Shown here: one piece after another, positions 59-64,000 of the stretch
Layout of the letters: each line of letters starts with the position of its first letter
Numbering within the stretch: the first letter of the stretch is position 1
Origin: Amoebophrya sp. A120
Taxonomy: Eukaryota > Protista > Dinoflagellata
Reading direction: 5' to 3'
Length of the DNA: 64,000 nucleotides
NCBI GenBank assembly: GCA_905178155.1
Contig: CAJINV010000002.1
Coordinates: 5,327,709 to 5,391,708, forward strand
Translations under genes and position numbers: made by a program
Notes under the pieces: generated by a model
The model's input: the letters and a program-made list of their open reading frames with translations, nothing else
Told to the model about the DNA's origin: nothing
The model's database searches: none

Positions 59-2475
59 GTTTTCTCTTGGGGTAGTAATTCCAACGGGCAGCTCGGCCAA
101 GGGAAAAGGACGCCGGACCAGCCCGTGCCCGGCGGAGTCGACGAGGCGAAGGACAAGCAAGCCTACCACGATTTCAAGACACTGAAAAAAAAGTACCTGT
201 TCCCAAACAAGATGCACTTGCCGCCCGGAAACGAGGGCGTCAGCAGGATAGGCAGCGGCAACGAAGGCACCTATATCAAAAGGAAAAATCCCCCCTCCCC
301 ATATCAAAACGAAGTTTCTCATGCAGGATTTGCGTACACAAATAAGATTTGTCTTGCTGGAGAGGAATGCAGCCCGATACTAAGCCTAAGTAGAGAGGCT
401 CTGGCCTAGGCGTCTAGCATGAGAGACGTCCGTGCTGTAGGCCCATCAGCATCACAAACCGCCCCCACAATGCTGCGGAGCTTGTGGAGTTGCCTTCTTG
501 CAAGACAGACGTGATTTGAGGTCGCAAATCAGCAGCGCAAATTTTCGGAAACATACCTTTTCGATATGGGGAGGGGGGATTTTTCCTCTTAATAACCTAC
601 ATTGTCACCAAGGGGGCGAAGTCCTACGCCTGCGGGTTGAACGGAGACAACCAACTCGGTATCATACATTGATCTGGAAAAGCATAAACTTCCTTTGCAT
701 CCATGTAAACCGTACGTTTATTTGATGCTCTGCTCAACACTTTTAGTACTGCATCCGCAAATGCAACTGAAGCAGGCCTGCTATCGCTAAGAGTGGTCGA
801 GTTGAAATACATATGTTCATTTCCTTGGTAACTCCAACCTCCCACAGGTCTTGGTAAGCAGCAACCGAACATCATCGAGACCCTGACCGAGCTGGTGGAA
901 CTGCGCGGCAAGCAGATTTCGTACATTGGGGGCGGGCAGCAACACGGGTGTGCCTGGGACAAAAACGACAACCAGGTGTACACGTGGGGCCGGAAGCCTT
1001 TTACCGGCATGAACGTACCGGAGACGAACGCTGACCGCGAGTTTGCGTCCCCGGTGAAAATCCCAAAGGAGGCCTTCGCGGGAAACCGCATCACGGACTT
1101 CAACAGCTCCAGCTACACCAACTTCGCGCTGACGGATATGCAAGAAGAAAAGATCGATCGTGCAGTTGTAGAGTTTTGGTTTTCAGTGATCTTCATGCGC
1201 AGCATGCCAAATGCCGGTCTCTTTCAACATGATGTTGGCCGTGCATTGTAGTGCCCGTGAAGAAAGCGCGTTTTTGCATGTTGCTATCTTCTGGTGCGCA
1301 TCATGACAGGGGTTGCTGTTATGCCATAAAGAATTTGTATATGCTTTTTCTCCGAGACGAAAAAACACTCTCGAACTTTTTCTCTCGGATAACGGAAAAC
1401 GGAGACGTGTTTGCGTGGGGTAGTGGGGAAATGTACCAGTTAGGCAACGTGCCGAAGGACGTCGACAACTACACGAAGGAAGAGAAAGATTTGATCGAGG
1501 GAAAGTCGGAACTCGCGCCCGCACTCATGCACGCGGAAAAGTTGAAGGACAAGTACGATTTTTTTGCGATAATTTCGTTGAAGGTCATTAAGTAGTACTT
1601 CACCATAAAGAACGCAATGGCGTCGAGCCCTATATGATCTTGGTTTTGACGTACACAAAAAAACTCAGGCACTGTGCATGGAGTTTTTTTTCTTCGTGAA
1701 GACGCTGGCTCTACTTCTCATTGATTTCTGCTTTTTTTCTCGGTTTAGGTTTAGGTAGGCCGCCACCGCTGCCGGCACGGGATGGCTGTCGTCGCGACCG
1801 TCTCACCTTCGATCTACGCCTTCTCCTGCTGCACAAGTTCGATCCGGAAAGGGTTTAGTTTAGGTTTCAGGGTTTAGGATATCCACTTTAAATCGACCTA
1901 GGTCGTTCTGCAAAAGTTGTGATTCCATCTATCCCACGAAAAAATAAACAGATACATTCTTTCCGTCGCTGGCGGTAGTCAGCACACGGTGATCCTGGCC
2001 TGGAACCCGATATGAACTGCAAAAGTATCGTACTCGTATAAATGCATGACAAATTTTCTCAGCATGAGAAATAAAATTTGTCATGCTGATTTACCTTACG
2101 AAAAATATTTGTAATGCAAGACCTGCATTTATACGAGTACGATACTTTTGCACAGGATACCCGAATCTTCCGGACAATTTCAAGCGTTCGCAGGCGGTGC
2201 TGGAAATCGAGCAGCAGGAGGATGTCTTGTCCTCGACTGCGCTCCTGAACGAGGAGTCCAACAAGCCGTCGCGGCTCGATTCGCCCTCCAAAATTGACCT
2301 GGAAACACGGTCAGAGATGAACATTTCGCCGCGGGCGAAGCGGCCAAAGCTCTGCTTCAGCCGGGACGTGGTGGAGAGGTGTCTGCAGGAGGTGAAAAAG
2401 CTGGAGAAAACAGTGTGGAACACCGGGCTGAACCGGGACAAGGCCATCGAAAATCTACCCTCGCTGTGTGATTGA
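59..2475 (+). CDS. RCC1/BLIP-II repeat protein, 3' part (multi-exon; probably starts upstream of the window)
   Basis: Spliced exons (~59-273, 600-658, 848-1136, 1397-1552, 1952-2010, 2165-2475) give RCC1 repeat motifs VFSWGSNSNGQLGQG, SYACGLNGDNQLG, GGGQQHG..VYTWG, LTENGDVFAWGSGEMYQLG and VAGGSQHT. Two GT-AG introns (659-847, 1553-1951) and three TIR introns. Confidence 0.85.
274..594. mobile_element. TIR introner, family B (poly-C TIR)
   Basis: TATCAAAAGGAAAAATCCCCCCTCCCCATATC ... GATATGGGGAGGGGGGATTTTTCCTCTTAATA, flanked by DR ACCTA; removal gives GTYIVTKGAKSY. Confidence 0.9.
1137..1391. mobile_element. TIR introner (diverged TIR)
   Basis: TATGCAAGAAGAAAAGATCGA ... TCGAACTTTTTCTCTCGGATA, DR ACGGA; removal restores LTENGDVFAWG. 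Confidence 0.8.
2011..2159. mobile_element. TIR introner, family C
   Basis: TATGAACTGCAAAAGTATCGTACTCGTATAAATGC ... GCATTTATACGAGTACGATACTTTTGCACAGGATA, DR CCCGA; in-frame on removal. Confidence 0.9.
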
Positions 2476-2528
2476 TGGACAAGAACTGTGAATCTCGCTG
2501 TGTAATTGATGGACAAGAACTGTGAATC
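2461..2528 (+). repeat. 34-bp tandem duplication spanning the RCC1 stop codon
   Basis: TCGCTGTGT(G/A)ATTGATGGACAAGAACTGTGAATC x2 with one mismatch. Confidence 0.85.
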
Positions 2529-3285
2529 ATGGTGGCCATTCACTTTTGGGAAATGGTGGCTGTGAAAATGAGAAGGCAAGAACACAAGGGCGGTTCTTTT
2601 CTTGCAAGAGCAGAGCCTTGTTCTTTTAACCTCAGGAAGAGCTACTGCACTACGACGCGAATTATTTGTTCCAAAGTACCTTGTGCACCACGACAAAATG
2701 CGATTGCGACCGCATTAGCATTTCATATATCCGCCTCGTTTTCGTTGAAAAGGCGAGGAGCGACGGGGAATGAAAGGGAGCTCTTTCATCATCGTCAGTT
2801 TTGCTCACTGCTGTACTGTTCGAAGTTTCAAAATCACCCAAACCCCTTCCCGGATGTCAGCGCTCCTTCGGTCTATGGTCCGTTTCCGCGCTTCGTAAGT
2901 GGTACAATTGGAAGTGGTGGTGGACGAGAAAGAAGACGCACCAGGACATGTGTACTTTAGAAATAATGGCGCGCAGCTGTCGATATTGTCTCGTCCTCGT
3001 GCCTCCAGAAGTGTCGTGGTCGTGATAAGCACGCTTCCGTTTCGCGTTCTTGTTTTATTCAAGCTTCTGTTCTTCGTAATTTTCGTGCCATGACAGCACG
3101 ACCGCGCGAGTCAATGTCGATGATATGAGTTGAATAGTACGTACCAGTACGCATCAATACCAATAGAGGTCAGGTGCGCATCAGCTGTGGAAGAAGATGC
3201 CAGCCCATTACTAGCCCGCGATGGCTGCAGTCGCGACTGCCCACCGGCGCAAGAGCAGCTGCTGCAGCAAACTATAACACGAAGA

Positions 3286-5803
3286 ATGAAGGTTCGACCT
3301 TTACCGCTTGCTCATCTTCCCGCCCGCCGCGGAAGATGGCCGCCACTTGTCGCGGTCACGACGTCGTTCTTGATCTTCCTGCTCGCTACAACTGCGTCAG
3401 CAGCAGCCTCGGCTTCTGCGGTGCACGAAGTCCATGTGGCGCAACAAGGTTATCAAGGACAACAAGCTCCCGCCGACGACTCCTCTAGTTTGGAATCTGG
3501 CAACGCGGAAAAACTGTTAGAGGATAACGAGCTGCTGAAGCAGCTGGCCGAGCAGGATGAGAAAGCGGTGCAGCAGCGGAAGGAGAATTTCCAAGCGGAA
3601 TCACACGTGCAGGAGGAGCTGATCGGGTTTTACGCGAAGTTATCAAATGTAAAAATGTCTGGGTCTGGAAGAATGCAACTTGTCATGCTAAATCTGAAGC
3701 ATGCAAAAATCTGTGTTGCATGATTACCAAAAGTCGTCCAGTTTTGACCAAGTCTGGAGGGAGTTTCTCATGCAGGATAGGCATGAGAGAGATCGCACAG
3801 AATCTGTCATGCTAGGTCCTGCATTCCAGACCTCATGGGTCATGGAAAAGCTGCATGACAAATCGCTCATTCTTCCAGACTCAGGCATTTTTACATCTGA
3901 TAGAAGTCTCTGCAGGCACAAAGACTCGCGCTGGACCAGCTGCAGTCCTCTTCCAAGCAAAACGCGGAAGAAGCCGTATCAAATGCAAAAATGTCTGGGT
4001 CTGGAAGATTTTGAGATTTGTCATGCTTGTCTGGCATGACCAAAAAGTTTGTGATGCGTGTCCGAGAAGAGACCCTTTTGCCTGTCATGCAAAAACGCAG
4101 TTTGTCATGCGAAAGCCGCAACACAGAGAACTTCTTTGAAAGAAGCGCAGATACTTCTCATGTTTGCCTGTGCATTACAGAGCATTCACTATTCCCAACG
4201 CAGCATTACAAGTTTCCAGACCCAGACATTTTTACATTTGATAAGCCGTGGAGATCAACAAGGAACTGAAGAAAACGCTGGACAACTTGAAGAAGAGCGA
4301 GGCGGGGTTGGTGGCTGCCGCGAAGGAGAAGGCCAAGGAAGCCGTCGTGCAGAAGTTCCGGGAAGAAAATTTTTTGTTGAAGAATTGGGACAAAGTGACC
4401 TTTGGAACGGAAAACTCAAAGGTGGCGGAAAGGAAAACGGAACAGTACGTGGCGCATGTGAGTATTGATAGCGTTTTTACTTTTATATACTCAACGCACT
4501 TGATTCCATTTTGTTGCTTGATTTAGGTCCGCATGACATATTCATCTTCGGCGATGGAGTGCTGCGCGACGCTTTTCGTATTTATTCTAGGCAGTTGTGG
4601 TGCGCAGCAGTGGGAGGTACCATTACAATAAATGAAAAATCGCAACATATAAAAACCTCTGTTGACATCTGCAGCGTAATTTTTTACCTTCCAACCACCC
4701 CTCCACGACAGATGACCTCTACACCCGCGCTTTGCAGAACGAGCGGCAAGCCGCGGGACTGGAGACCGAGGCCAACAGCCTTGCAGCGTCTTCCCAGGCA
4801 CTGTCCGACGGTGCCGACGACAAGGAGGATATGGAGTTCTCAAATGCTACATTCTCAACTGTATACGTGAATTTGTAATGCAAGAATGATAAAAGTGAAA
4901 CTGAAAGGGGGAAGATTGTGCCTTTTGCATTACAACTACTTCGGCGCAGATTCTGATGCTATCTAGCACGTGAAGAACTTATCATGCGCGGCAGCTCAAT
5001 CATGTAGATAATGATGGCAGTTTTGCGCGCCCAATCGCGTAACAGTTGAGAATGTAACGCTTGAGAATCCCATAGAGAAGGCCGGCGAGGCCCTGGCCGC
5101 CCAACTGGACCGGTCGGAGGCCGCGCAGTTGAAATTGCAGGCGGGCGAGAAGTATGCATCGCAAAAGTTGTGGTACCGTGCTGCTCGTGCTACAACATGC
5201 CATCACGCATGACAAATCCGCTTCCTCTGCTTGCATCTGCATCAGGGAAAATGAAATTTGCCGTGCAAGAGAAATTTTAAGTAGTATCAGTATGATGCTT
5301 TTGCCCTGCATACGAAGCGGGCCTACGCGGACGCGCTGATGGCGGAAGCCAAGCAGTGGACGGGAAAGCGGAAGGATTTGAGTCCGGGGACGGACGGGGA
5401 CGTGGATGAGTTGGTGAGAAAACCCTACGCGGATATCAAAAGCAAAAATCCCCCCTCCCCATATCAAAACCAAATTTCTGATGCTGGATTTGGATACACA
5501 AATCAGATTTGTGTTGCAGAAAGGCATTGCGGCCAGATCCCCAGGCTAGCTGCAGCCGTTTGGGTCTAGTTGCTCAGCACGGCAAACGGCTCACTTTTAG
5601 GCCCAAAAGCATGACAAATCGCTTCCATAATGGGGCGGAAGCTTCTGCCCTTGTCTTCTTGCAAGACAAATGTGACTTGTGACCTCAAATCAGCAACACA
5701 AATTTTAATTTTCGGAAACATGCCTTTTCGATATGGGGAGGGGGGATTTTTCCTCACAATAACGGACGTGCACTCCTCACTGGACTTCTTGGCCCGGCGG
5801 TGA
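3286..5803 (+). CDS. Hypothetical protein with N-terminal hydrophobic (signal/anchor) segment and coiled-coil body
   Basis: LVAVTTSFLIFLLATTASA followed by E/K/Q/A-rich helical exons joined in frame by removing five TIR introns; stop TGA at 5801-5803. Splicing around 4458-4710 is unresolved. Confidence 0.6.
3641..3902. mobile_element. TIR introner, family A
   Basis: TATCAAATGTAAAAATGTCTGGGTCTGGAAG ... CTTCCAGACTCAGGCATTTTTACATCTGATA, DR GAAGT. Confidence 0.92.
3977..4243. mobile_element. TIR introner, family A
   Basis: ~30-bp family A TIRs, DR AGCCG; removal gives NAEEAVEINKELKK. Confidence 0.92.
4830..5074. mobile_element. TIR introner, family D
   Basis: TATGGAGTTCTCAAATGCTACATTCTCAACTG ... 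CAGTTGAGAATGTAACGCTTGAGAATCCCATA, DR GAGGA/GAGAA. Confidence 0.88.
5153..5312. mobile_element. TIR introner, family C-like
   Basis: TATGCATCGCAAAAG ... CTTTTGCCCTGCATA, DR AGAAG/CGAAG; in-frame on removal. Confidence 0.78.
5434..5761. mobile_element. TIR introner, family B
   Basis: Poly-C/poly-G TIRs as at 274-594, DR GCGGA/ACGGA. Confidence 0.9.
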
Positions 5804-6607: not shown

Positions 6608-9600
6608 ATGTTTTCCGGAGTTGCCGGCATGCTGCCACTTCCTCCCACTGGGAGCGGTGGTTCGTCCTCTGCTGCCGGTGCCCAGGGCAGCACGAGTAGA
6701 GGCACAAATAGCGACCAGCAGCAACTCGTGCACTTCTGCGAATCGGTCGGAATTCGCTCGCTCGCGAGGAATGGCAAGTACCTGGCGCACTACAAGATGA
6801 CGATGACCACCACTTCCGGAGGGTTATACTATGGCACAGCAGGCGGGTCTGCTGGGAGTTCTTCGTTTGCGGGAACTAGTACAACGGCGAGCAGCACTGG
6901 TGTGAAAAATTCCGTTGAAATTGCGGGCGTCCACCCCTTTCCGCGCACCGACGGCACGTCCGCGCCCAGTGAATGGTCCGTGCATCGGTTTGCGCCCGAG
7001 AAGCGGTTTACCAATTTGCAGATCGGAGGCAGTTCTGCGTCTTCCTCCGCCACGGGTAGTAATGTCCGTGCCGCCGCCGGGGGACTACACCACAGTCTAG
7101 GTGGGCCGCCGTCGAGCTCCTTTCTAGATGAGGCCACGTTGCGATGCGGAGACTCTGTATTGCTGCGGTGTATGCGTTCTTGCCTTGCTGGCTGTGACCA
7201 TGTGCTACGATAGCATGGATAATTTAGTATAGTAGTACCAGCTCCTCGAGTCAACAGAGATCCGTCTCGTCGACGAGATCGATCGAAAGTAAGCTGCGAC
7301 GAGTAGTTGTTGTGTCATGTTGCAAGAATGAATGACCCGGCCAGGACGACAGGAACAGGTGTAGACCAGCACGTTGAATGTACTTGAAAAACCAAAACAC
7401 CAAGAAAGCGAATATCTAAACAGGTTTGCTTCGTTCGTAACCGCGACCCGGTGAAGAACACTTGCGAGTACCTCACCTCCCTCGGCCGGGAGCAGATTAG
7501 CGTCGAGCGAGATTCTTGCGATGCGACCAGGCCGGGGTACAATATGGCGTTCTCAACTGTTACATTCTCAACTGTTGCATGAATTTGTCATGCAGAACTA
7601 CCATCAAGATCCACACGAGAAAGCTGCGTCGCATGACAAATTTGCGAAGAGCTTAACAGCACCTAAATCTGTGCAGAACTTGTAATGCTAGAGGTGCAAC
7701 CTCCCCCCTTTCACTTTTGCAATTCTTGCATCACAGTTGAGAATGTAACAATTGAGAACGCCATATACAAATGGCTGATCGTGAACGCCGACGACCCGCG
7801 GAGCCAGGCGAAACTGCAAGAGACAGACGCGGTCTACTTGAAGGATCCGTTCCACAACTTCCTCTCCGTAAATCCGAGTTTCGGCCAGGGTGCTGGCGGG
7901 GGGCCCTCCGCGCCGGCAAAGTCCTCCACGCCAATCTGCGTTGCGGAGACCCTACGCCACGAGCGTTGCGTCAGGTATTGGGTACTTTGCATTTTTGCAA
8001 TAGTTTTCTTTCAGTATCAATTCATTAAAGGGAAGATCGGACAGAATGAATATAGAATTTTGCACTGCAGGCATTGCCACCTCGACAAACTTAAACGTCA
8101 CTTGAGCTTCTGGACGGTGTGTTTGTTGGCGCTGTCCTTCTTGTCACGACTGTCACTTCTTGCTATTTTTTCTCTTTCAGCACAAGTGGATGCAAAGGGA
8201 AAAGAATCCAACACAAATACGACGATCTTGATCTCTCACCTCATTTAGGTGGCAGCTCCTGCGCGCAAAGTCTGTGCCCATGTGGGAGGTCTTTGAGCCC
8301 CCTCCGGACAACACTACCGAAACAATAGCAAATTCAGCCGCCGCGGGTGGCTTTAACCCGAATCTGTCTTCGCTGGACATGTCGGTTCTCTCCGCGGCAA
8401 CGCAAAACCGGAACAATCCGACCAACAATCTCTATCACTTGCTCCAGCAGCGACAGGCGGAGACGACGCTCCCGGTTTTCAACCACGCTACGGACAACCT
8501 GTTTGACGCGCCCCATTTTATGCGCGAAAACAACGTTTTCCAACTCTTCTCCTCGTCTACCGAGGACCCGCCGACCGCTCTGGAGCAGGAGAAAGCGCTG
8601 GTGGAGGACATTTTGTTCTGCTTGCTCGGGGTTCGGGATGGCCAGTTCATTAAGTGTAAGAAGATACGAACAGGAGGATCTACAACTGGAACGACAACAT
8701 CATCTGCCGGCAGCAGTGGGGTAAATAATAACCCGCCTGTCGCGTTCAAATACGAGATTCCTTCTGCTGGTGCAACCACTGGTGGGGGCTCAGCTAGTAC
8801 CGGGACGACGAACCCGGCCTCTGCAACCGACAGCGCTGCGAACAATGCGGAAAGCTCGGGAAGCGCCGGGAACTCACGGGCAAGAGCGAGAAGTGGGTCC
8901 TCGTTGCAAGGCGGCGGCGTTCCGATACCTTGGAAGGTACAGGGAGTTTTCATCATTTTCTGTTGTTCCAGACTGTTGGCAAGCAGGTGCAAGTGATATA
9001 TTTCGTGCACTTTTGATCATTCCTCGTGCCCGCTATAAATCCTGTGCACGAATTTTTAGGCGAGATGTTGAAATAAATCTTCTCAAGAAATAAAACTCCG
9101 AAGGTCGCCCTGATCCATTTGACAAGGCAGATCCTGCCCCTGTGCGAATGGCACGCCACTGTCACCGACTACGTGGACTACCACTCGACACTAGACAAGG
9201 GAAAGATTCAGCACGCCCTGTGCGCCGCGGTAGACAATCTCGTGCAGGAATACAGATTGAAAATCGGCCAACTGGAGAGTCTCCATCGCGAAGATCATCA
9301 TAGCACCGGCGCAGGCAACAGCGCCGGCGGGGGTGCAACATCCAATTCAGCAAACAACTTCACGCTGCATCGCCTCTGGTACCTCCTGCAGCCGTCCTTC
9401 GAGACGATGTCGCAACTAGCGGCGATCTGCACCGCCGTGTACGGAAAAAGCGGGGGCAGCTTGCTTCGGGCATTAGAAGCGGTGATGCAGGGGGGACGAT
9501 TTGGGAACTCGGTCGTGCGGAAAAAATTGGCGGAGCATTGTATTGATAGAAAAACGTCGATCTTCCTAGCCTGATGTCAACCAACATATGTGAGTTTGGA

Positions 9601-12600
9601 TTCGCTTTATAGTTGCATAGGGAAATTCAAATTCTTCACCCGTGCGTGGATAGGATTTCTCATTCTCTTGCAATGTCGCATTCTTACAACTGAAGTATCC
9701 CTTCGTTTTTCTTGTGCTTCTGGTTCTTCCGCATCTACACCCACTCGTGACATTTTTTTTTGCGACAACCTCTCAGGTCTCGCGGCCGCCACGGTTCCTT
9801 TTTTCGACATGCTCGCGGATTGGCTCGAGGAGGGAAAACTCACCGAGGACGTGTACGACGAGTTTTTCGTAAAGAAGAACCCGCAGGTTTCGGAGAGCAA
9901 ATTTGGCCCCTTCTTCTGGCACAACCGTTACTACGTGGAGCCCTCGCTCATCCCCGGGTTTTTACTCTCCCTGAAAGACCGAATTTTGAAGGCGGGGAAG
10001 TATAAAAAGGTGCTAAACGACTGCATCCGGATCAAAAACGAGGAAAACGCGGGACGAACACATGTTGAACAAGATGCAGGACGAATGCATTTTTCCCAAC
10101 GGGGCTCGTCGTCCAGGGCGGTCACGACCTTCTCGAGTAGAAAAAACGAAAAGGACGACAACGACCACTACACGGGAATAAATAGTATTAAAATCGCCAC
10201 CAGCTTGATGACGAGTGTTTCGTCGGATCACCACGACCACCCGACGAGCAAGTCGAAAAGTAGAACTTTCTACTACACCAAGTCGGACTCCTTCTACATT
10301 CAGAAGGTCACGAAGTTCTACCAGCAGAGCTCGAAGCAACTGCTGCAGTACTTTCTGCACGATCTGAAGCTGAAGACGCGGCTCCGGGTCTTCCGCGCGC
10401 TGTTTTTCCTGGAGAAGGCAGACTGGGTCTCCATCCTGTTTTTGAACGCGCGCAACGAGTTGGAGCAGCCGATGAACTTGGTGAATGCGCAACGCTTGGA
10501 GTCCGTGCTGGACTTGTCGTTTCGCAGTTCCTCGCTGCACGTGCTGTATAACAACACTCTGGAGCAAAAACAACCGATTTTTGTCAACGCCCAGACCGCG
10601 TTGAAGGAAAGCTTGGACTTCGCGCGAGTAAACAGCAGCAGCACAGTATGAAATGCAAAAGCATCGTACTAGTAATAGTATAAATCGCATGACAAATTTA
10701 CCTTAAGAAAAAACTACTACGAGTGCGATACTTTTGCACAGGATACACAGATGAACAACTACATCTGGATAATGAAGCCGAAGACGCCGGGCGGGGTGTT
10801 AAAAGTGCCGGAGCAGCCACGGGACGAGGACGCAGACGAGGGCAAGATCAAGATGACGCGAGACCAGACACAGTAGATGAAGATCAGGAACAAGTAGACG
10901 AAGGCGGTAATGTGATTGAAGACCAAATTGCAGCAGACGAACGCCCTGCGTACACGACGTACTTCCCGAAGACACCCTTCGCTCAGTTTTCCCGGTTGCC
11001 GACGACTGACAAGGACGTCACGGAAAAGATTCTGTCGCAGATAAAGCCCGCATTTCACACCTTCCGAATCGAAGACAAATGCAGGATGTTGCTGCAATCT
11101 TCGAGTTATCAACTGCAAAAATGTCTGGGTCTGGAAGGATGCCAGATTTATCATGCAGGTTTTCTATGACCCACGAGGTCTGGAGTGCAGCACCTAGCAT
11201 GAAAAATTTGGTTAGATCTCTATCATGCCTATCCTGCATGGGAAATTCCCTCTCGACTTGGTGAAAACTGGAGGACTTTTAGTAATCATGCAACACAGAT
11301 TTTTGCATGCTTCAGATTTAGCATGAGGAGTTGCATTCTTCCAGACCCAGACACTTTTGCATTTGATACGAGTAACCTGGGAGGCTCTAGTACCTCAAGC
11401 GGCGGAATGGCAGCAGGTGGTATTTTCAGCAATAGTGGAGGGGGCGACTACAATCAGGAGGTGCCATTCGAGGATTTGATTGTCATGAACCCCAGCACGT
11501 CCGCCGCGATGAAAAACGTGCAGCAACCCGGAATCAAATTCTTCACGCTGCAATACACGACCGAAGCAGGAGGTGGTTCTTCGAGCTCTTCTTCTGCAGC
11601 CGCCGGGTCATCATACCAGTACCACCAGCCTCAGCCGCACGAGCAGATGAACAATTACGATACGACTGCGGCAGCTTCGTCGTCCTCCTCTCAGACGACG
11701 CAAAATCCGGAATGGCTTTTGTTCCACGGGAGTAACTTGCTGAAGTACCAGTGCATCTTCCGACACTTGATCTACCTGAAATACGTCGAGAAGCGGCTGG
11801 CGGACGTGTGGATCATGGAGCAAAAGATGGCGTTCGCGAACGGATCCGCACAGCACTACAAAATGCTGAACAGCAAATTTTCGACCGTCCAGAGCCTGCG
11901 GGAGTCCTACAGCCTCCGGCAGCAGATGTACCACTTCGTCCACTCCTTGCTCCACCTCTCGCAAGCCAGCTCGCTGGAGCCGAACTTTTTTAGCCTGATC
12001 AAGCAGCTAGACGAGATTGACTCTGTCGACGAGCTGCTGGAAGTGCACGATCTCTTTCTCTACAAGTGCTTCACCGAAACGCTGCTTTTGTTCGAGTGCA
12101 GCGGCGGGGGCGGGACGAGTGCAGCGTCGTCGCCGAACCAACAGCTGCCAGGAGAGCAAAACAGCTCGAATCTAAATCTCTCCTTCAACACGACAGCGAG
12201 TAGCACGACTACCATGTACCACACGCTGTTTATCACAAGAAGAAAATGTAAAGATACACAGTTTACAGTAATAAATTTCAGCAACACAAATTTTCATCTC
12301 TGCACGACAACGAAATAAGATTGCAATGTAGAGATCAACATAAGGGGAAGCACGCAGTACGAAATTGCGCTCTTCATATGCATAAGCATATCTGGCGTGA
12401 CAGGGCTTGTTTCTCTTGCTTGTTCCCCAAGAACTACCTAATGTGTAACTGTACCACTTTTTTCTTTGCATACTGTTGAAGCTTCTGTCCACCTGCGTTT
12501 TGTTTGCCACGGCCGTGGAGGACTTCATTCAGCGGTTCGGCACCACAACCAACATGAATAACACCGTCCCCGGATCCGGGCTGGTCTCCACGACGAATTC

Positions 12601-14281
12601 CGCCACCGCGGCGACCGCCAACACGTCGATTTCCAGCCGCTTCACGCAGGCGATCCAGGAAAATAACCGTATCAAATGTAAAAATGTCTTATGGCGCGCC
12701 TAAAGTAGCTTTTTTAAAAGTACTAGAATTTTTTTTTTGCAAGCGCTTCAGTGCCAGAACCTAGCTAATAAAACTAGCTAACTCTGAATATGCATGAGAA
12801 ATTTATTGCGAATAAGTGCAAAAGCACGTCGGCGTCGAGAGGTAAGTAGGCTGGTACCCTTCGAGGCTCTGGTCTACGGATCTGTCCAGAGCGGTCCCGT
12901 CGCCAAGCCTTGCTGAGGGTCCTCTACTCGGAGCTCTGGCTAGGTGTACGGTCCCGAAACGACGAAAACCGCGCGGAATTTACCAACCTCCGATACTCGG
13001 TTCCGAACATCCAGCCAGATCTTGACATTGGCGCACGATGGCGCTACCTACACTGCGACGGCGCATTAGCTGTCGAACATGGGAAAAAAAACCTCTGCGA
13101 ATCTATTGGGAAACTTCGCCCGAGTTTGTCCCCCTCCGCAGATGCCAACTGATCGGCCTCTTCGGGAGGGGTAGCTACATCGGGATTGGCGATTTTTTTG
13201 GGGGGTGTTTCGTAGGCCATTTTGCCGGCCACTTCGCGGGCCCTTTGGGGGCCCTGTGTTGGGGCAGGCCTGCGTGCCCGTTACTCTTTTCGCTGCGGTC
13301 CGCAGCAGGTGGCCTCCGCACTTGCGTATTGCGAACTCGTTCGCAAATTCGCAGTAGACACCGAACGTCATGAGATGGCCCACCTACTGTTTCAACCGGA
13401 GTAGATGACTTTGCGCACAACCAGAAACATGTCCGAGCTCGCCACGACGTACCGATAGCGCTCCGGACAGATCCGTGGGCCAGCCCTTCGTGGAAGACGA
13501 GCAAGCTACTACCTCTGAGTTAGACAACTGGTTACGCATGCAAAATTCCACCTAGTTTGATTAGCTAACTCTATCTAGTTTGGTATAGCTAGTTGCCGAC
13601 GTGCCGCACAAACATCAAAAAAAAAATTCTAGTACTTTTGAAAAAGCTACTTTAGGCGCGCCATATGTCTTGGCCTGGAAACTTGTAATGCTGCGTTGGG
13701 AATAGTGAATGCCCTGTAATGCACAGACAAGCATGAGAAATGTCTGCGCTTCTTTGTGTTGCGTTTTTCGCATGACAAGCTGCGTTTTTGCATGACAGGC
13801 AGAAGGGCCTCTTCTTGGACACGCATCATAAACTTTTTGATCATGCCAGACAACCATGACAAATCTCGCAATCTTCCAGACCCAGACATTTTTACAGTTG
13901 ATAAACCGGTTGGCGCTGCAATCGGTGCTCGAAAACGAGCACTACAAGAAGATGATTCGGAAGTTCCAGACGATCTTCAACAATCAGCTGCAAACCCTGC
14001 TGAACCAGGCGAAGCAAATTGTGGCGCAATTCGGCTTATCCTGTGCAAAAGTATCGTATTCGTATAAATGCAAGTCTTGCAGCATTACAAATTTTCTTCT
14101 CCAGGTAAATCCGCATTGCAAATTTTAATTCTCATGCTGAGGGAATTTGTCATGCATTTATACGAATCGAATATACTTTTGCAGTTCATATGGCTCGGAC
14201 CACTACCTTCACCAACTGCTGCTAAAATTGGACTTTAACGATCACTACTTGAACGCAAGCGTTGTGGTTCTGGGGGGCTAG
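6608..14281 (+). CDS. TUBGCP2: Gamma-tubulin complex component 2 (GCP2/Spc97) with low-complexity insertions; multi-exon, start approximate
   Basis: GRIP-domain motifs QEKALVEDILFCLLG, ILPLCEWH..GKIQHALCAA, PFFDMLADWLEEG..DVYDEFFV, FWHNRY..IPGFL..ILKAGKY, KYQCIFRHLIYLKYVEKRL, LRQQMYHFV and terminal LLLKLDFNDHY; TAG at 14279-14281. Confidence 0.85.
7543..7765. mobile_element. TIR introner, family D (opposite orientation to 4830 and 21260)
   Basis: TATGGCGTTCTCAACTGTTACATTCTCAACTG ... CAGTTGAGAATGTAACAATTGAGAACGCCATA, DR TACAA. Confidence 0.9.
10647..10745. mobile_element. TIR introner, family C (99 bp, shortest copy)
   Basis: TATGAAATGCAAAAGCATCGTACT ... GAGTGCGATACTTTTGCACAGGATA, DR CACAG. 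Confidence 0.85.
11107..11368. mobile_element. TIR introner, family A (reverse complement of the 3641-3902 type)
   Basis: Family A TIRs, DR CGAGT; interior is the reverse complement of the 3641 copy. Confidence 0.92.
12231..12472. mobile_element. TIR introner (diverged)
   Basis: TATCACAAGAAGAAAA ... TTTTTTCTTTGCATA, DR CTGTT; removal gives HTLLKLLSTCVLF. Confidence 0.78.
12670..13903. mobile_element. Composite family A introner (reverse complement of the 3977 type) carrying a nested element
   Basis: DR AACCG; left TIR is split at TGTCT by a 976-bp insertion; removing the whole unit gives ENNRLALQSVLE. Confidence 0.9.
12690..13665. mobile_element. 976-bp non-autonomous TIR element nested in an introner TIR
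   Basis: ~50-bp TIR TATGGCGCGCCTAAAGTAGCTTTTT..AAGTACTAGAATTTTTT and its reverse complement ending GGCGCGCCATA; DR TGTCT (12685-12689 and 13666-13670). Confidence 0.92.
14037..14190. mobile_element. TIR introner, family C (reverse complement of 2011-2159)
   Basis: TATCCTGTGCAAAAGTATCG ... TACTTTTGCAGTTCATA, DR CGGCT/TGGCT; removal gives FGSDHYLHQLLLKLDFN. Confidence 0.9.
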
Positions 14282-19200: not shown

Positions 19201-22200
19201 ATGCCTGCACCAACGAAAGTGTCATCTCTTGTTCCTCCGGGACAGCAGCTCCTGCGCGAGGAAGGAGTTCCTTTTTCATCAGAAGTCGGTGCGGAGATGT
19301 TGTTGACCAACTGCGACGAGGCAAACAAAGAAGAGTCCTATGAGAAGTGCTGTCCGGTTCAAGTACTAGAAAATAATTCGGCTGATGCACTTGCACAACA
19401 AGTATCAGAAGGAAGTGATCCTCGCGGCGACGAAGATGAGGGCATGAACTTGCGGCAGAGCGATGTGATTCACCCAAGAGCGGGCGTTGTACCAGGACAG
19501 AAGATCGAGCAGCAGATCTTGTTTCGGGCGAGCAGTTGTACCGCGGCTACACCTCCGATGGAGCAGACGACGCCGAATTTTGAGCGTCCTCGCACTACGG
19601 ACGATATCGTCACGGATCCGAACAACGTCGCGGCAGGTAGTGGTAGAAGAACCTCGGGGCGGCGGTCGCCCTCGTGGTCTAGTCGTACCCCGACGGCAGC
19701 GATGAATATTGCGCCAGATTTGTTGGTTGATGCCAGGTTTGTTGGTACTAGCTTATCGACTCCAAGAGCTCCACCGAGTTGTGCAGGGAAAAAGGTGGTG
19801 GAGCTGCTGAACCAGGAAATGAAGAAGAAGAAGGACACGAAGGGGGACGACGACCACGTCCATGATAAAAATCCCAGAGTACTAGCTGTCGAACAATCTT
19901 CCACGGTCGCGGCCGACCAGGCAGCAGGAGGTGGTGGCGCGGCGGCCATGCGGCAACCTGCATTTGGACCACAGAGAGGTGGTCGTGGACCTGGAACTGA
20001 AGCTGCTTTCTTTTCGCCCAAAACCGGCCGTGCAGGTTGTATGATTATGATGAACAACTACAACACGCAGGTCGTTGATGAAGAGCAACTGATGATGACT
20101 CCGACGAGCACCAACATGCACGGACAGGAACAACAACATCTGCAAGACAGCACGCTGCAGCATTATTCCTTCCCGAATCTGCAGCCCTCGCTGTCTCTGT
20201 CCCGCGATTGCTCGGCGGAGACCATGACCATGCAATGGACGACAACAAATGGAGGTGTTCTTGTCGGCGGTGGTCGCGGTGGTCACCAGCAACCGCAGCA
20301 TCAGCATCATCGTCGTCACTACTCCCTTATCAAGTGTAAAGATGTCTGGGTCTGAAAGAATGCGCGATTTGTCATGCCGCTTTTCCATGACCCATGAGGT
20401 CTCAAATGCCGCCGGAGCTAGCATGACAGATTCTGCAAGAACTTTCTAATGCCTATCCTGCATGAGAAACTACCTCCCGACTTGGTCAAAATTGGGCGAC
20501 TTTTGGTAATCATGCAACACAGATTTTTGCATGCTGCAGTTGCAGATTTAGCATGACAAGTTGCAATCTTCCAGACCCAGACATTTTTACATTTGATATC
20601 CCTCGACAGTACAGCCAGCACGGGGTTGCAACTGCTCAGCAGCTCCTATGGGCCGCACCAGACGCCTCCCAACCCACACTACCACAACTACACTCCCATG
20701 GCAAGAGACCGCTCCCACACGACACCTCGCTTTCACATCCCCGCCGGCTCCCCGCAGGCCTCCGAGGATGCCAGCACGCCGAGAGTCATGCAATTTCCGC
20801 CCATCGACACGCCTAAAGGTTATAGTTCTGAAGATCATCAGGGGCAGGTGGGATCAGGTAGTTCTCCTGGTGGCGGGGATGAACTACATCAAGAACGAGA
20901 GGGCAAAAACGCGGGTACTAGGGCGACGTCAGCACCATCGGCTGCCGTACAAATCGCTCCCCGAACCCTGTTTTCCATGTCGAACTCAGCTCAAGATAGC
21001 AACGGGGGCTTGAACGGCAAGTCGCTGCCAAATCTGGGACCCCTGCTCCTCCGCGGCGAGTCCAACCAGAGTTCTTTGGACGGTCAGTTTTGTGCTGGTG
21101 TGGGACGAGGGGAAGAAATATACGTTCTAGATAACGCCGGGACACCAGCATCAAAGGAGCTGCACCAACCTGGGATGGTGATGAGGATGCGACAGGGAAG
21201 GTTCCAACACCGCCAACAACCCTCGATCGAGGAGGAGAGTCCATCCAACATCCCCGCGTTATGGTGTTCTCAAACGTTACATTCTCAACTGTTACATGGA
21301 TTTGCATTTGTGATGCTAAAATGGGAAAAATGAAAGGGGGGGGCATTGCGCGTCTTGCATGACAGATTTGGCACAGATTGTCAGCCTGTTTGGCCCTTCC
21401 AGACTTTGTCATGCAGAACAGCTTGATCGTGTAGATGATAATGGTAGTTTTGCATGACAAATCATGTAACCACTGAGAATGTAACACTTGAGAACTCCAT
21501 ACGCGTCACGGTGCGCCGCGCACGGTGACAGCATGGTCGAGACCGCGATCCAGAATATCAAGCTGTCGCCCGCCGGCGTTCATCATGGCAGTAGTGGAGC
21601 GGGGGGCTTCTTCCAGAAAAATACTGGTACGTGGTCCAGGGGACCGAGCACAACACCTCCAAGGGGGCTACTTCTACAAAATAACCGTCAGGAGTTCTCA
21701 TCTCCTCGTTGCGGACGACCGGGCGATGCGGGGACTCCTGATACGGCAAGTGATGTTGGTCCAGGAGAAGATACACCACGACCAGCAAACGGCGGGCACG
21801 ATTTTAGTAGTGCCAGCAAATCGTCGTCCTCGTCCCCGCTAGTAGTCGTGGCAGAGGGCGAGCAGACGGAAAGGGAAACACCATCATCTCCTGGAGAGAG
21901 CGATCCTGATCTGCTTCTGGATGAAGAAGCCTCTGGTGCTCGTGGTCCTCTCCATCGCAGCTCCTCCTACGTCGCCCGTGCGCAGCAGCTCCGGCGGGGC
22001 GGCAGTTCTGGCACAACGGGCAGCCGCACCAGTATGAGAGTGGTGCACAACTGCTCCCTCTTTCCTTCATTTGTATTGCATGCATGGCAAGAACAGAAGA
22101 ATGTTGGTTCCGCATCACAAATCTGCACACGAATTTTAGTACTGTCTGACAGGTTCCATGTCATGCGGACAGTGCTTAAAGACAGGAGGGGGATTCGGTA

Positions 22201-27069: not shown

Positions 27070-27079
27070 CCACCAGTAA

Positions 27080-42387: not shown

Positions 42388-42668
42388 TATCAAAATGAAA
42401 AGTTTCCCCTCCCCACATTCAAAACGAAATTTGTGATGTTGGATTTGTGTACACAAAAGTAGTGACTGCTCCCTTGGCCTGGTTGTTTAGCATGCCAGCA
42501 ACTTGCCCTGTAGTCCCGAGAGCATCAGAAATCGCCCACTCAAGGTGGCGGAGACCTCTGGGTTGCCACCTTCCGGGAGGGACAGTTGATTTGTTTGTGT
42601 ACACAATTCAGCAACACTAATGCAATCCGCTTTGAATATGGGCACGGGCGATATTTTTCGTCACAATA
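42388..42668. mobile_element. Family B element in apparently intergenic DNA
   Basis: TATCAAAATGAAAAGTTTCCCCTCCCC ... ATATTTTTCGTCACAATA, DR CATGA. Confidence 0.8.
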
Positions 42669-49546: not shown

Positions 49547-52500
49547 ATGGCCGAGAAACAAGTGAAACCCGGCGCCGGCGCGGACAGCACTAAAAAGAAT
49601 GCAGGCGCCCCCAAGCCTTCCCCGAGAGCGACCCCAGCAACCGTTGTCGACCCAGCCAAGGTGAGAATCGTCGCCGCCGGCGCGGCAACTGCACCGCCGG
49701 CGGCTGCAGGAGGACCGACAGGTAGCAAGAACTCGAGTGCTGGTGCAACAGCAACAGCTACAGCGGCCGCACCCGCCGTCGCATCCGCCGGTGGCAGTAC
49801 AACAACTGCAGGCGGTACTAGAACTGCAGCTGTTGCAGCGGCCGCGGGTAGTACAACTGCGCAAGGCAACAAGAACACTACAAATTCTAAGCCCACGGGT
49901 ACCCCCAAAGCCTCTCCAAAGGCGTCCCCGAAAGCAGGGGCAGCTGCTGGTGCCGGACCCGGACCACTTTCGCAGGCGGGGAGCGGAAGTGTCGTCGTGA
50001 TAAAAGCAGTGGACGCAGCAGCAGATTCAAATAAAGGGATGAGTACTAGTAAACCATCTCCGAAAGTAGTAGATTCCAGCAGTACAACTATCGTTGCCGG
50101 TGGAGCTGCAGCAAAGTCGTCTGGTGACATCACTGCCGCCAAGGTTCCCATCAAAACAGGGAACAACAATGCTGGCGCTTCTAAACCCACTCCGAGAGGG
50201 GGTGCAGCTGGCGCTTCTGCGGTCGCAGAGCAGACAGGCAGCACCAAGCCCCCCACGACCGCTGGTGGATCCGCCGCGCAGCCAACAACTTCTAGTACAA
50301 CCGCAGGGTCTAGTAGTACTACTTTGCCACCGAAAGCGAAGCAGTCGGCCCCGAAACCTAAGCAGGAGAAGAAACTGCAGCCACTGAAGTACACGGAGGA
50401 GCGTATTCAACTGAATGACGCGGAGATCTTATCGAGGAAAAAAACTGATGTGTAAAAAGGCTGCCTTTGATGTGCATGTGTAGTTGCAGAAGATGCATAA
50501 GTAGAGGTCAGCACAATGCTCGTCGACATGCATCGTTGTAGCCTAGTTCTTTATTCATATGTGTGCTGTTCACATTCACATACTATGATCTGTGCATGAC
50601 TTATGCGCAACATCAACATCATATTTCTTGTCACGCTGTGTTCCTCGTGCAAAAGCAAAAGCAAAAAGAGCTGCGCCGACTTCTACAACACAGTTGTTGT
50701 TTTCTTGGATAGATCTCGAAGTTCGTGGGGCTGAACATGGTGCGGCAGCCCGAGCCTGTGGTGAAGATTCAGACCATGTTCACGAACCTGTTCCGCACCA
50801 CGGTCCGCATCTTCGGTGCGGAAGATCAGGGCGAACAAGGGATGTTGAACAACGAGGATGAAAGAGCGTCGAGAATAAAACAACTACGGCCGGAACACGA
50901 GCTGAAGCAGCAGACTGCGAAGCAACAAGTTTTGCAGGCCCTGGAAGCGTATGAGCAGGTACTGGACGGGCTGCAGTTGGAGCAGCGCAGTTACATTCAC
51001 CAGTTGAAAGCTTTGCGTGAAGAGGAAAAGAAGGTCAAGGTGGTCCTTGGGCAACGATCCGTCGACACGGGGGAGCTGCTACTCGTGGACGACACTGGTA
51101 GTAAAAATGCGGTTGGAGGTGAAAAAAAGGACACGACGAAGGCTACTTTATCTACGGCAGGAGGTACAACTACCAAGGTACTATCAAACAACAAGAGTGG
51201 CGTGAAGAAGATGAACATCGATGGTACGAGCAGCACGACAAGTGAGGATGAAGATGACCACTCCTCTCGCACAACATCAGCTGCCAAAACGGCGACAACC
51301 AAGAAGCTTTTTGGAAAGACGCTCAACGACGTGGTGGACTCCAAGCAATTCGATCTGGAAGGTCTTTATCAAAGGGAAATTTCGATCTGGGGTTGGAAGG
51401 TTGCAAGTTAATTTATCAACAGGCGTGTCCGGCATTTGAGCATGACTTGACAAGTCGGCGCTGCTGCTGTCTTGCATGTTGCTCACGAAATAGTACTCCA
51501 GGATGAATCTGTCACCCAAATTATAAAACCCAGCTCATTGTTCTGCGAAATACCAATACGCGAGAAGAACAGGTAATATGAATGAGCCACGCAAAATAAA
51601 CCTGTGGTCATGCTTAGCTGTGCATCGCTACGCGCTTTTTTTGTTTTTTCTGACAATTAGTTTTTGTCTAAGAAGCTTCATTGGCACGATTCCATCGACG
51701 CCATCACAACTTTCCAGAGGACCCAGACGTATTTACGTTGCATAGACTGCTCGGGCACGAACAGGCGATTGAGGAGTTGAAGGTAAGGCGGTACTAGCAG
51801 ATTGAGCTTTCATCGTCCTACCAGATCTTGATATAATTGGTCTTGCTCTTGACCTCTTGCCCATGCAGACGAGGGGCGACCCCCGTTGTTCATCGTGTGC
51901 CGGTGCCCATCGTCCCTGCATCGGGAAGATATGATCTACTTCATGGGAGACCGAGACTTTATGATTATGTTCACTACCTCTACTGTGCAAAAAAAAAAAC
52001 AGGAAGTAGCAGGGAGCTTGGAATTCATCGCTGAAGAGGCGGTTGGGGAAGATTTAGTAAGCGACAAGAAAAAGAACGCGTTGGAGCAAGCTGGTGGGGA
52101 AGTCGATGCGGGGGCCGCAGGTGAAGAAGTGTCCTCTGATGACGAGTATCCACTGCAAAAGTGCTATGATCCACCGATGCTCCTAGTTGTAAATGTAATT
52201 GATGCGAGCAAGCGCGACAAATCTGCTTGTTTTCGACTTGAGTCTGTCTAAATGACAGACAAACGAAACGGAAACTTCGATTTTCTTCTTCTATGAACAA
52301 AATATGAATTTGTCATGCGATTTACAGCTAGTAGCGCGAAGATCTTCATGTTTTTGCAGTGCATAGCGGGGACGAAAACACTGACGAGCCGATCGGAGAA
52401 ACGACGTCTTTACTGGAACTGGCCCACAAAACCAAGATCAACATGCTGCAGGAGGAGGTACTTACTCATTCAAGCTGACTCGTTACAAATTAAGTTTGGC

Positions 52501-56275: not shown

Positions 56276-59083
<2,808 letters not shown>

Positions 59084-61814: not shown

Positions 61815-63072
61815 ACAGCATCTTCTACTTCACGGGCCAGGTCCAGCACCTGCTCACGTCGATGTTGTTGTTGAATCTTGTTGTACAATAAAACGCGCCA
61901 CGTGGCAGCTGCTGCACGTGAAATGAATTATTTACGTTTCCTATACCCCGTTTCTTTGTTCGAGAAAGCACTCAGATTGAAAGAATGAACACCACTCTCC
62001 GGATTCGAAGGACGCTTGTCGCTTTAGAATTGGAAAAGAAATAGTGTTTTATGGAAACAAAACAACTCTGTAGCTGCACGCTTCGCCGACTGTCGTGCTT
62101 GTGAAGGGGTGTTCGTGCACCTGTCGGTCCTGCACCACCGGATCTTGTCAAGAGCCTTCATGAGGTGTGCGTGACTGTTCTTGTTTTCTCGCGCTTTTGG
62201 TACTAGTTCTGAGTTTAAGTAGGCCTTATTGGCGCCTACGTCTAGTACCTCCGGAGTGGTCGGCGTTGCAAATTTTGGCAGAGCTCCATGAATATGATTG
62301 ATGAGGACCACTCTACTTCCAGAATCACATTGAGTTAGAGTGCCGGATCCATCGTGGTATTTAATGAGCGAAAAAAATGAGGGATGAACCAAGGGGTCCT
62401 CACGACGGGCTGGTGGTGCCTATCGTAGTGCGGCCAAAAAAAGGTGAAAAATGGATTTGTTGTAATTTCTCGCTTGAAGCGCGACAATCAACTACATTGT
62501 GATATCAGCCACATGGTACTAGAACTAGTAGCACCACCAAATTCATCCCGCGTCGTTTTCGGTTTGTTGAGTGATTTTACGAGTTTTGATATACTTACAT
62601 TCAATCGCAGTGTTGAGAGAGAGATTTTTTTGTTGCCACATCCACTTCTCCGACGAGGCTGCAATTGCTATACGTTTGTCTTGTGAGCGAAGACGTGTGC
62701 TGAAAAAGAATTCTTCGAAGGAGATAGATTTTGACTCGAACGACCTGGTGAAAAACATGCAAACATAAAGTTTATGCAACCAGCACCTGTAAATGTAAAT
62801 GCACTTGTTGTTTGTGTCGATCGCGTTTTCGTTCTTGTCTTGAATTAGAATCGAACCTCAAAAGATGCAGCACTCCTCTCCCGGACCGCGCTGATTGTCA
62901 ACTGATAATATTGAAATAAGCGGTTCTTTGGCGGGGCCCAGCACGACACGAGCGCCAGCACGAAGACGCACTACTTGTTCCGATAACGTCGACAACTGCT
63001 GACGGTTACGCCCAAGAACATTGAAAGCCCTCGTCTTGCTCCTCCCTGTTTGTTCGTGCCGACGTGGTCACC

Positions 63073-63928
63073 ATGGAATCTGCCAGTTTCCACGACTTTC
63101 GGATCGTGCAGGAGCTCGGCCGCGGGTCCTTCGGCACGGTGTATAAGGCAAAATGGAACCAAAACCAGCACCCGGGATCCTCCTCCTCGCGCCCGACCAG
63201 CACGCGACCGGGGCCGCCTGGTGGAGACCCCGACGCGCAACCCTTTTTAGTGTTGAAGCGAATTGACTTCAAGCCCTGGCACCAGGAGAAACACCGGCTG
63301 GCGGCGAAAAAAGAGGTGCAGAAGATAGCTGGTTGATGTGCATGTGGATAGGTGGTTTTTTGTTTTCGAAATGAAACTTCGTCTCCTTTTTTCCACATGC
63401 GAGGTAGATTCCAACATTTGTCACGGTCGGGTCGTATCTATCAACAAGACAATGAAATTTCTATTCAGGTCCAGATGCTCGCGAAGGTGCGGCACCCGAA
63501 CATTATTCGGTACTACGGCAGCTTCACGTATAAGGGCGCCCTGTTTATCTGCATGGAGTATGCAAGCTGCGGAGACCTGCACCAGTTCATTCAGAAGCGG
63601 CAGAGGAGGCAGGCGCAGTTGACAGAGGATATCAAATGTAAAAATGTCTGGGTCTGGAAATTTGTAATGCTAAAAGTGAATGGGAGTTCCACCGCAATAC
63701 GGAGCCAAGCATGACAAATTTTTGGGCTCCTATGTGTTGCGTGTTCCGCATGGCAAACTGCGTTTTTGCATGACAGGTAAGAGGACAGCTTTGTGCCCAT
63801 GCATCACAGATTCTTGAGCCATGTCAGACATCCATGACAAACATAGCAATCTTCCAGACCCAGACATTTTTACATTTGACAGAGGACCTGCTTTGGAAAT
63901 TCGGGGACCAGCTCGTCGCTGCGATTGC
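63073..63928 (+). CDS. NEK: NIMA-related (NEK) protein kinase, 5' part (continues beyond the window)
   Basis: FRIVQELGRGSFGTVY..VLKRI..AKKEVQMLAKVRHPNIIRYYGSF..LFICMEYASCGDL..LTEDLLWKF..QLVAAI. Confidence 0.85.
63630..63881. mobile_element. TIR introner, family A
   Basis: Family A TIRs (right end ACA), DR GAGGA; removal gives LTEDLLWKF. Confidence 0.9.
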
Positions 63929-63942: not shown

Positions 63943-64000
63943 TATCAAATGTAAAAATGTCTGGGTCTGGAAGAATGCATGTTTGTCATGCTTGTCTGGC
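63943..64000. mobile_element. Left end of a family A element (cut off by the window edge), apparently inside a GT intron starting at 63929
   Basis: TATCAAATGTAAAAATGTCTGGGTCTGGAAG. Confidence 0.8.

Follow-up and report, generated by a model that had tools for sequence, protein, structure and literature searches.

Among protist genomes, that of the dinoflagellate Amoebophrya sp. A120 carries introners of about 250 nt in about 1,954 families, with non-canonical splice sites (PMC7789003). As described in the text of Farhat et al., their ends read TAT, seven nucleotides and AAA, they have inverted repeats, and a direct repeat of 3-5 nt lies at their borders, given as 5 bp in the legend of Fig. 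S19; how they move and how they are spliced are both given as open questions by these authors (PMC7789003). Short repeats inside transposon ends are known from other systems. Emigrant, a miniature inverted-repeat transposable element, has subterminal repeats that copy part of its terminal inverted repeat (TIR) and are bound cooperatively by the Lemi1 transposase (PMC1636448), Hermes repeats are BED-bound (PMC10368747), and subterminal repeats of Sleeping Beauty, Tol2 and CACTA elements are cited in the same papers (PMC1636448, PMC10368747). Two transposon groups come close in their termini: IS3EU/GingerRoot, with TA..TA and a duplication of usually 6 bp, and IS481EU, with TNT..AYA and duplications of ~4, 15 or 25 bp (PMC10045372). 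Nonconventional introns of Euglena are cut at the offsets N3 CDG ... CHG N5-6 (PMC12501133). Here, we analyze a 64,000-base stretch of A120 contig CAJINV010000002.1 (positions 5,327,709 to 5,391,708, henceforth the window), a eukaryotic sequence in which short inverted-repeat elements interrupt the genes, and describe an 11-base word, GCAT[GCT]ACAAAT, that these elements share.

Introners and subterminal repeats are both known; what appears to be new is one word with spacing rules across introner families whose TIRs diverge. The A120 introner papers (PMC7789003, PMC12130899) agree with our elements in ends, 5-bp repeat, size, family structure and splice-site type, and their text and supplements, as far as searched, describe no internal motif across families. 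GCATG has 0 matches in the text and supplement of Farhat et al. (PMC7789003), and the passages of the Roy preprint (10.1101/2020.10.14.339549) hold no shared motif word. Literature searches gave no report of the motif, with supplement figures and subscription papers outside their reach.

An internal word shared by introner families

Elements were called by TAT...ATA ends, terminal complementarity and a flanking duplication, with the motif left out of the criteria. The finder returned 41 elements, two more were recognized by eye from their ends (43) and two from RNA joints, giving 45 complete elements (Table 1). Statistics on confinement and shuffling rest on the 43 elements defined without the motif, which occupy 11,882 of 64,000 bases (18.6%), and all tests cover the window and 26 related loci rather than the whole genome. 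BLAST groups the elements into repeated families, and word depth in a DNA run reaches 1e4-1e5 over young elements vs ~45 for unique DNA. An exact 5-bp duplication flanks 31 of the 45 and an exact 4- or 6-bp duplication none (lengths of 2-10 were tried). Among the 90 ends, positions 1-3 are T, A and T in 89, 87 and 88 cases, figures partly due to ascertainment, and A occupies positions 11-13 in 72, 74 and 85; in families D, F02, F04 and F08 the full AAA is missing, though TAT is retained. With the TAT-N7-AAA TIR, the border direct repeat, repeated families and removal from transcripts at non-GT-AG sites all present, the elements match the published anatomy of A120-type introners. No target-site preference was seen in 112 insertion sites, and family lengths showed no phasing (R 0.19). 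Two insertions are nested (12670-13903 and 38640-39212), the inner element of each having its own 5-bp duplication. For families A, C and F06, identical 13-14-nt terminal variants turn up in more than one family, and the two ends of an element often disagree at positions 4-8, hinting at an exchange of end cassettes between families.

All 32 exact copies of the word in the window (14 on the + and 18 on the - strand) lie inside the 43 elements (binomial p 4e-24), vs a mean of 0.06 copies, with a maximum of 2, in 300 dinucleotide shuffles of the element interiors. The exact 11-mer is found in 22 of the 43 elements and a 9-mer in 32, and most multi-copy TAT...ATA families repeat the motif two to six times. 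When up to two mismatches are allowed, elements contain 121 copies (10,514 bases), GT-AG introns, whose limits are approximate, 4 (2,911 bases), exons 2 (10,764 bases) and intergenic DNA 0 (13,080 bases). The same word supplied the top 6-8-mers in an unbiased enrichment over 25 representatives and emerged from motif-blind expectation maximization at width 11. The site is asymmetric, non-palindromic and 11-13 bp long; an 18-bp palindrome proposed by expectation maximization was discarded as an artefact because oriented sites lack the second half. These results bear out much of the original prediction, made from the window's letters, that the motif recurs in both orientations in families with different TIRs, is rare in exons and unites the families, the last together with the TAT ends and the 5-bp duplication; enrichment over background, which it had set as a test, is evident. 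Eleven of its twelve example positions were right within 1-2 bases. For the twelfth, 37252, the nearest copy is GCATGACAAG at 37272, and the copy at 5207 sits in a singleton element (5153-5312) and not, as had been thought, in family B. Weak copies are somewhat commoner in GT-AG introns (36232, 51845, 57231, 58847) than in exons or intergenic DNA, and old elements may have given rise to some canonical introns.

A metagenome scan with a back-to-back motif pair returned at least 115 stretches, of which 79 loci stood among the matches listed; 28 of the loci among these matches have an accession prefix in common and contain elements of the same families, at ~67-97% identity in best hits. We used 26 of the 28 (162,580 bases), leaving out L018 and L025 as overlaps, and took only counts from 35 short loci (L089-L123). 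On the 26 loci the finder called 106 elements vs 2 on shuffled loci, and the 23 that hold the seed pair were excluded from the spacing and leave-one-out tests. Outside seed pairs, 80 exact copies fall within called elements and 32 outside, by eye mostly in truncated or missed elements. Pooled with the window, the set comprises 45 families; the exact 11-mer occurs in 13 of the 14 multi-copy families, whose TIRs are plainly unlike after TAT, and in 22 of all 45. Eight of twelve other inspected loci proved to be one fold-back repeat in which a perfect palindrome accounts for the motif pair, and they were treated as unrelated. An abundant fold-back repeat of other metagenome contigs, likewise set aside as unrelated (L014, L023, L026, L030, L032, L036, L042, L053, L079), reads ATTTGTCATGCTAG...CTAGCATGACAAAT within a long palindrome. 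A scan of viral sequences gave 0 matches to the family A TIR and 2 to the motif pair, both without element anatomy.

Conservation sets the motif apart from its surroundings. When 67 non-seed copies were compared, each left out in turn, with their family majority, motif positions differed at 460 of 3355 (0.137), TIR positions 4-30 at 478 of 3587 (0.133) and the other interior at 1886 of 7080 (0.266). Variation in motif columns is thus half that of the remaining interior, and their conservation equals that of the TIRs. This differential conservation already largely refutes the view that the word is a relic without current function, left by one motif-rich ancestor of all families or produced by fold-back symmetry or CpG decay. 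Common descent is suggested by the shared ends and duplication length, and interiors are mildly CpG-poor and CA/TG-rich (observed/expected 0.73 for CG, 1.40 for CA). With motif and ends masked, none of 91 family pairs align by BLAST at E<1e-3, so that homology of the interiors, the other explanation named beforehand, was not detected in a test of weak power for these short families, since masking also weakens hits within families. Interiors are otherwise unalignable across families, the shuffles fall far below the 32 copies seen, and only 88 of 454 copies have a mirror partner, leading us to regard a relic as very unlikely; CpG decay and fold-back symmetry were rejected as sources of the motif. 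A SINE-like (short interspersed element) internal promoter was likewise rejected in view of both orientations, the TIRs and the constant duplication. Most copies do not pair with each other in predicted folds, a pairing partner being present for only 44 of 119.

The copies also keep preferred distances. Pair distances in the window are most frequent at 31-33, 39-43 and 53-54 bp, and the best-fitting period is 10.3-10.4 bp (0/400), which recurs in the pooled set (0/500). Spacing ranges were fixed on the window and then applied to 19 families absent from it, where same-orientation pairs at 31-33 bp reach 4.7 family-equivalents vs 0.8 (0/1000) and opposite-orientation pairs at 39-43 bp 2.3 vs 0.6 (4/1000 and 2/1000). 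The safe statement is that short-range preferred spacings equal three, four and five helical turns; we restrict it to the short range because the continuous period failed to replicate cleanly. Measured from the TIRs, as the original prediction had proposed, an outward-pointing copy lies 46-52 bp from the end in 7 of 21 window families (0/2000), and at ~40 or 50 bp in many families.

The ends themselves show a partial likeness to the motif. Positions 4-14 are its best-matching inward register (mean 4.9 of 11), at least 8 positions match in 26 ends from 11 families, and end positions outside AAA average 2.59 matches vs 2.00 in shuffles (0/2000), with positions 7, 9 and 14 disagreeing; all three comparisons are post hoc. 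The published TAT-N7-AAA signature may therefore be TAT followed by a worn motif copy, which would recall Emigrant and Sleeping Beauty, whose repeats resemble part of the TIR. Motif density tracks TIR identity (rho 0.59, n 44, a set in which the end of element 31105 is off by one base; rho 0.35, n 127). Families with at least three copies have a median of 2.37 sites/100 bp vs 0.82 in singletons, about three times lower.

Removal from transcripts

Four contigs (X1-X4) from one sample, presumed to be RNA, lack GT-AG introns that the DNA run X5 contains; in the gene at 29.7-40.3 kb they skip these introns as well as the elements, several of which X5 reads through. Of the 15 joints listed, out of 24, 2 are of GT-AG type and 13 belong to elements; one of these 13 includes a micro-exon and the other 12 are simple. 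Each simple joint takes out the element plus 5 nt, and a cut 1 nt before TAT and 4 nt after ATA is the only placement that fits all 12 (31104-40303), pinned unambiguously by element 31105. A 1-nt offset before TAT means that T is expected at intron position 2, and all 9 predominant non-canonical A120 sites in Table S4 have it (PMC7789003). According to the legend of Fig. 3 in that paper, where the border lies with respect to the hairpin is variable or unknown, in contrast to the one geometry found here (PMC7789003), which could correct the annotation of many non-canonical introns of the A120 type. Euglena introns resemble this arrangement (N1 TAT ... ATA N4) in a fixed offset from a paired triplet and a longer 3' overhang, but they use another triplet and other offsets, their abstract mentions no internal repeated motif, and the lineage is unrelated (PMC12501133).

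Removal was shown for 14 elements by joints or adjacent contig pieces and inferred for 3 more from transcript-contig size, 17 in all. Two of them, both old (31105 and 39625), have no copy inside; a sense copy at 8 bits is missing from 5, an antisense copy from 4 and a sense GCATG from 7, and copies show no strand bias (57 vs 62). Given the two spliced elements without a copy and the missing bias, the motif is probably not a splice signal, and the splicing signal, located in the ends, is separable from a putative mobility signal in the motif. The original prediction of a binding site for a common factor thus keeps the part that fits a protein site, namely conservation and specific spacing, and loses the part that made it a required splicing or excision signal. 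Its idea that copies on both strands explain orientation independence is likewise dispensable, because the TAT...ATA ends are symmetric and suffice.

A weaker role is conceivable, in which the motif aids a non-canonical machinery as an RNA enhancer or as a DNA mark read in transcription, with both orientations guaranteeing a usable copy either way round. The core resembles GCAUG, the word of Rbfox proteins; the motif is almost confined to spliced sequence, and GT-AG introns hold weak copies where intergenic DNA holds none. U1 is reported as undetected in Amoebophrya (PMC7789003), so other splice signals would be needed. An Rbfox-type enhancer should be present on the sense strand, which the strand counts and the 7 elements without sense GCATG contradict. 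Beyond the elements spliced without copies, the motif thins in old elements as the ends persist, one geometry defined by the ends fits every simple joint, and spacings at multiples of the helical turn point to DNA. We therefore judge such an aid to splicing to be quite unlikely.

The second nest (38640-39212) leaves transcripts as one 578-nt piece. A micro-exon of ~8-12 nt (38413-38424) lies between element 38092-38412 and a GT-AG intron, and the transcript joint there has extra letters. Raw RNA runs X7-X9 left the exons uncovered: they gave 1, 34 and 34 reads, almost all of which fall on 36 nt of the 39292 element; in X8 and X9 this 36-nt match (39324-39360) has a TIR-like loose end, and a relative may share the family of this element.

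A possible common mobilizing complex

On the strength of confinement, conservation and spacing, we consider it fairly probable, though well short of certain, that the copies are double-stranded DNA binding sites, comparable to subterminal repeats, for one mobilizing complex common to the families. The motif would then likely be a docking site for copying machinery rather than a signal for splicing out. In the mechanism we envisage, a protein binds the copies on duplex DNA, the simplest candidate being an integrase-type DDE transposase or else its host cofactor. As 31-33, 41 and 53-54 bp correspond to 3, 4 and 5 turns, binding would occur on one helix face; the bound protein would bend the short element and bring its TAT ends together, and cutting and insertion would proceed with a 5-bp stagger. 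Selection would maintain the motif only in lineages that are still mobile, with decay setting in after insertion. Excision from RNA would be a separate step keyed to the ends, whose 1 nt/4 nt cut restores the exon.

Subterminal repeats of the Lemi1/Emigrant and Hermes systems are likewise short, located inside the ends, present in both orientations and asymmetrically arranged (PMC1636448, PMC10368747). They belong to one TIR type and one known transposase, whereas the 11-mer is common to at least 13 families that differ in their TIRs; here, unlike in those transposons, copies are distributed over the entire interior at preferred distances, and the elements also leave RNA. Binding has been demonstrated for Lemi1/Emigrant and Hermes and is proposed from sequence for the A120 elements. 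As to the mover, TAT..ATA fits the termini of both IS3EU and IS481EU (PMC10045372). Their duplications differ from the 5 bp found here: the 6 bp of IS3EU occurs in 0 of 45 window elements and 0 of 82 in the related loci (which were selected for 5 bp), and the lengths of 2-10 bp covered gave no match to IS481EU. The text of a second introner paper describes A120 family 38 as TIR-flanked with Copia/Gypsy-like open reading frames (ORFs) (PMC12130899), in agreement with an integrase-like mover and making this family a candidate for it.

A host DNA-binding or chromatin protein, such as an AP2-type factor or a packaging protein, might instead read the motif, its carriers being tolerated, positioned or made accessible. 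Such a reader would also fit the spacings close to whole turns of the helix, and the CATG core is reminiscent of TGCATGCA, an AP2 word of apicomplexans; the packaging protein DVNP is reported in both strains (PMC7789003). A general host site should also occur between genes, where 13,080 bases hold no copy, and the partial resemblance between element ends and motif suits an enzyme acting at ends. We think a host factor of this kind unlikely.

Several observations weigh against a mobilizing complex. No transposase or other binder was found: a Pfam scan of 28 long ORFs gave no transposase domain, the window and the 26 related loci hold no long TAT...ATA element with a coding ORF, and Farhat et al. 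state that none was found in A120 (PMC7789003). The 976-bp element at 12690, to judge by its perfect TIR, is young and yet has only two copies, which counts against a strict need for a dense array, and family B shows little extra conservation (0.265 vs 0.33). In independent loci alone the continuous period was not cleanly replicated (best 7.7 at 2 mismatches); at 3 mismatches these loci gave 10.6 (29/500) and new families 10.6-10.7 (40/500 and 48/500). The end distance replicated weakly in new families (73/1000 and 6/1000), and the slope of neutral decay after insertion (0.22) is confounded by subfamilies. The separation from splicing, finally, draws on one sample's contigs, and one or more copies persist in 15 of the 17 spliced elements, leaving room for a helping role.

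Taken further, a single machine might move nearly all of the roughly two thousand introner families by way of TAT ends and a helically spaced array of 11-mers rather than family-specific TIRs. The TIRs would then be free to diverge and to serve as an RNA hairpin for an end-measured (1 nt/4 nt), non-spliceosomal-looking excision. We offer this extension tentatively and with the balance tipped against it; if true, it would account at once for the diversity of families and the missing family-specific transposases. In practical terms, an 11-bp word with defined spacing could serve as bait to pull down the missing protein, and the array as a sequence filter for autonomous copies (long TAT...ATA elements) and as a means to rank families by mobility.

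Element coordinates and other insertions

Table 1. Introner-like elements of the window. Motif copies are given as position of the G, strand and number of mismatches (0-2); the strand of the elements is unassigned. Duplication: matching positions of the 5-bp target-site duplication.
Element	Position	Motif copies	Duplication	Remarks
Family B	274..594	324-2, 357-1, 449+2	5/5
Singleton	1137..1391	1202+1	5/5
Family C	2011..2159	2044+0, 2062+1, 2086-0, 2117-1	5/5
Family A	3641..3902	3688-1, 3773-2, 3812-1, 3853+0	5/5
Family A	3977..4243	4026-0, 4034+2, 4057-2, 4110-1, 4203+2	5/5
Family D	4830..5074	4881-1, 4927+2, 4987-2	4/5
Singleton	5153..5312	5207+0, 5265+2, 5266-2	4/5
Family B	5434..5761	5484-2, 5517-2, 5609+0, 5661+1, 5693+2	4/5
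Family D	7543..7765	7593-0, 7631+0, 7688-2	5/5
Short, C-type ends	10647..10745	10687+0	5/5
Family A	11107..11368	11156-1, 11197+1, 11236+2	5/5
Decayed	12231..12472	12281+2	5/5	TIR 15/25
Family A	12670..13903	13691-2, 13731+1, 13770+2, 13854+1	5/5	Holds nested insert
976-bp TAT..ATA element	12690..13665	12792+1, 13536+2	5/5	Nested in TIR of 12670..13903; perfect TIR; no ORF >115 aa inside
Family C	14037..14190	14082+1, 14113+2, 14137-2, 14155-0	4/5
Family A	20328..20598	20377-0, 20421+1, 20460+2, 20551+1
Family D	21260..21501	21316-1, 21357+1, 21414-1, 21452+0
Singleton within window	22033..22263	22079-2, 22112+1
Decayed TIR	22734..23116	22827-2, 22952-1
Singleton	23506..23784	23677+1, 23721-2
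A-related ends	28867..29225	28986-2, 29056-2, 29110-2, 29162+2		Removal inferred from transcript-contig size
Family F02	30694..31000	30743-2, 30783+0, 30824-2, 30856-1		Absent from transcript contigs
Old	31105..31319	None internal; motif-like 31108+2 within left end	1/5	Spliced as 31104-31323
Family A	32059..32328	32107-1, 32141-2, 32198-0, 32270-2, 32278+1		Spliced
Family B	32389..32710	32451-2, 32535-0, 32567-2, 32659+2		Removal inferred from transcript-contig size
Family A	32868..33142	32916-2, 33007-1, 33090+2		Removal inferred from transcript-contig size
Family C	33832..33981	33866+1, 33908-1, 33939-0		Spliced
A-related ends	34728..35053	34778-1, 34985-2		Antisense only; spliced
Old, low-copy	36356..36714	36406-2, 36460-1		Antisense only; spliced
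Family A	36818..37079	36867-2, 36947+1, 37032+2		Spliced
Family F08	37175..37426	37235-2, 37272+1, 37327-2, 37359-2, 37367+2		Spliced
Old	37549..37780	37619+2	3/5	Spliced
Family B	38092..38412	38153-1, 38237-1, 38269-2, 38329+2, 38361+2		Spliced; micro-exon, then GT-AG intron downstream
Old	38640..39212	38739-2		Host of nested 38928 element; found from RNA joint; spliced
Family A	38928..39190	38977-0, 39018+1, 39049-2, 39057+2, 39142+2		Nested
Family F06	39292..39575	39374+0, 39424+2, 39457+0, 39536+1		Sense only; spliced
Old, TAC..ATA	39625..39935	None	2/5	Found from RNA joint; spliced
Family A	40041..40303	40091-2, 40125-2, 40185-2, 40257-2		Antisense only; spliced
Old, C-type	40615..40766	None at <=2 mismatches	1/5	Beyond the gene's stop codon
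Family B	42388..42668	42439-2, 42522+2		Outside recognized coding sequence
Singleton	50430..50711	50594+2
Old	51367..51744	None at <=2 mismatches	3/5
Element	52147..52365	52212+2, 52318-0	3/5
Family A	58512..58763	58630+1, 58715+2
Family A	63630..63881	63670-1, 63709+0, 63748+2, 63768+2, 63801+2, 63832+2
Family A	63943..64000	63991-1		Cut by window end

The window also contains insertions of other kinds. A GC-rich insert of ~2.3 kb (~24720-27075) in a coding region has short inverted ends, with CCAGTAAC at 24716 and 27073, an internal GTGTGATACTTTTT-like repeat at 25562, 25643 and 25722, reversed at 26149 and 26241, and no long ORF; it is a different type of element, whose internal array is comparable. 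Another insert, of 1.3 kb and without a long ORF, lies between the two copies of a 35-bp direct repeat, at 45917 and 47284 (45917-47318). Between direct repeats at 43758 and 45511, a 462-aa ORF (43741-45129) encodes an RNase H domain (Pfam PF00075, E 3e-7) and is likely a 5'-truncated non-LTR (long terminal repeat) retroelement.

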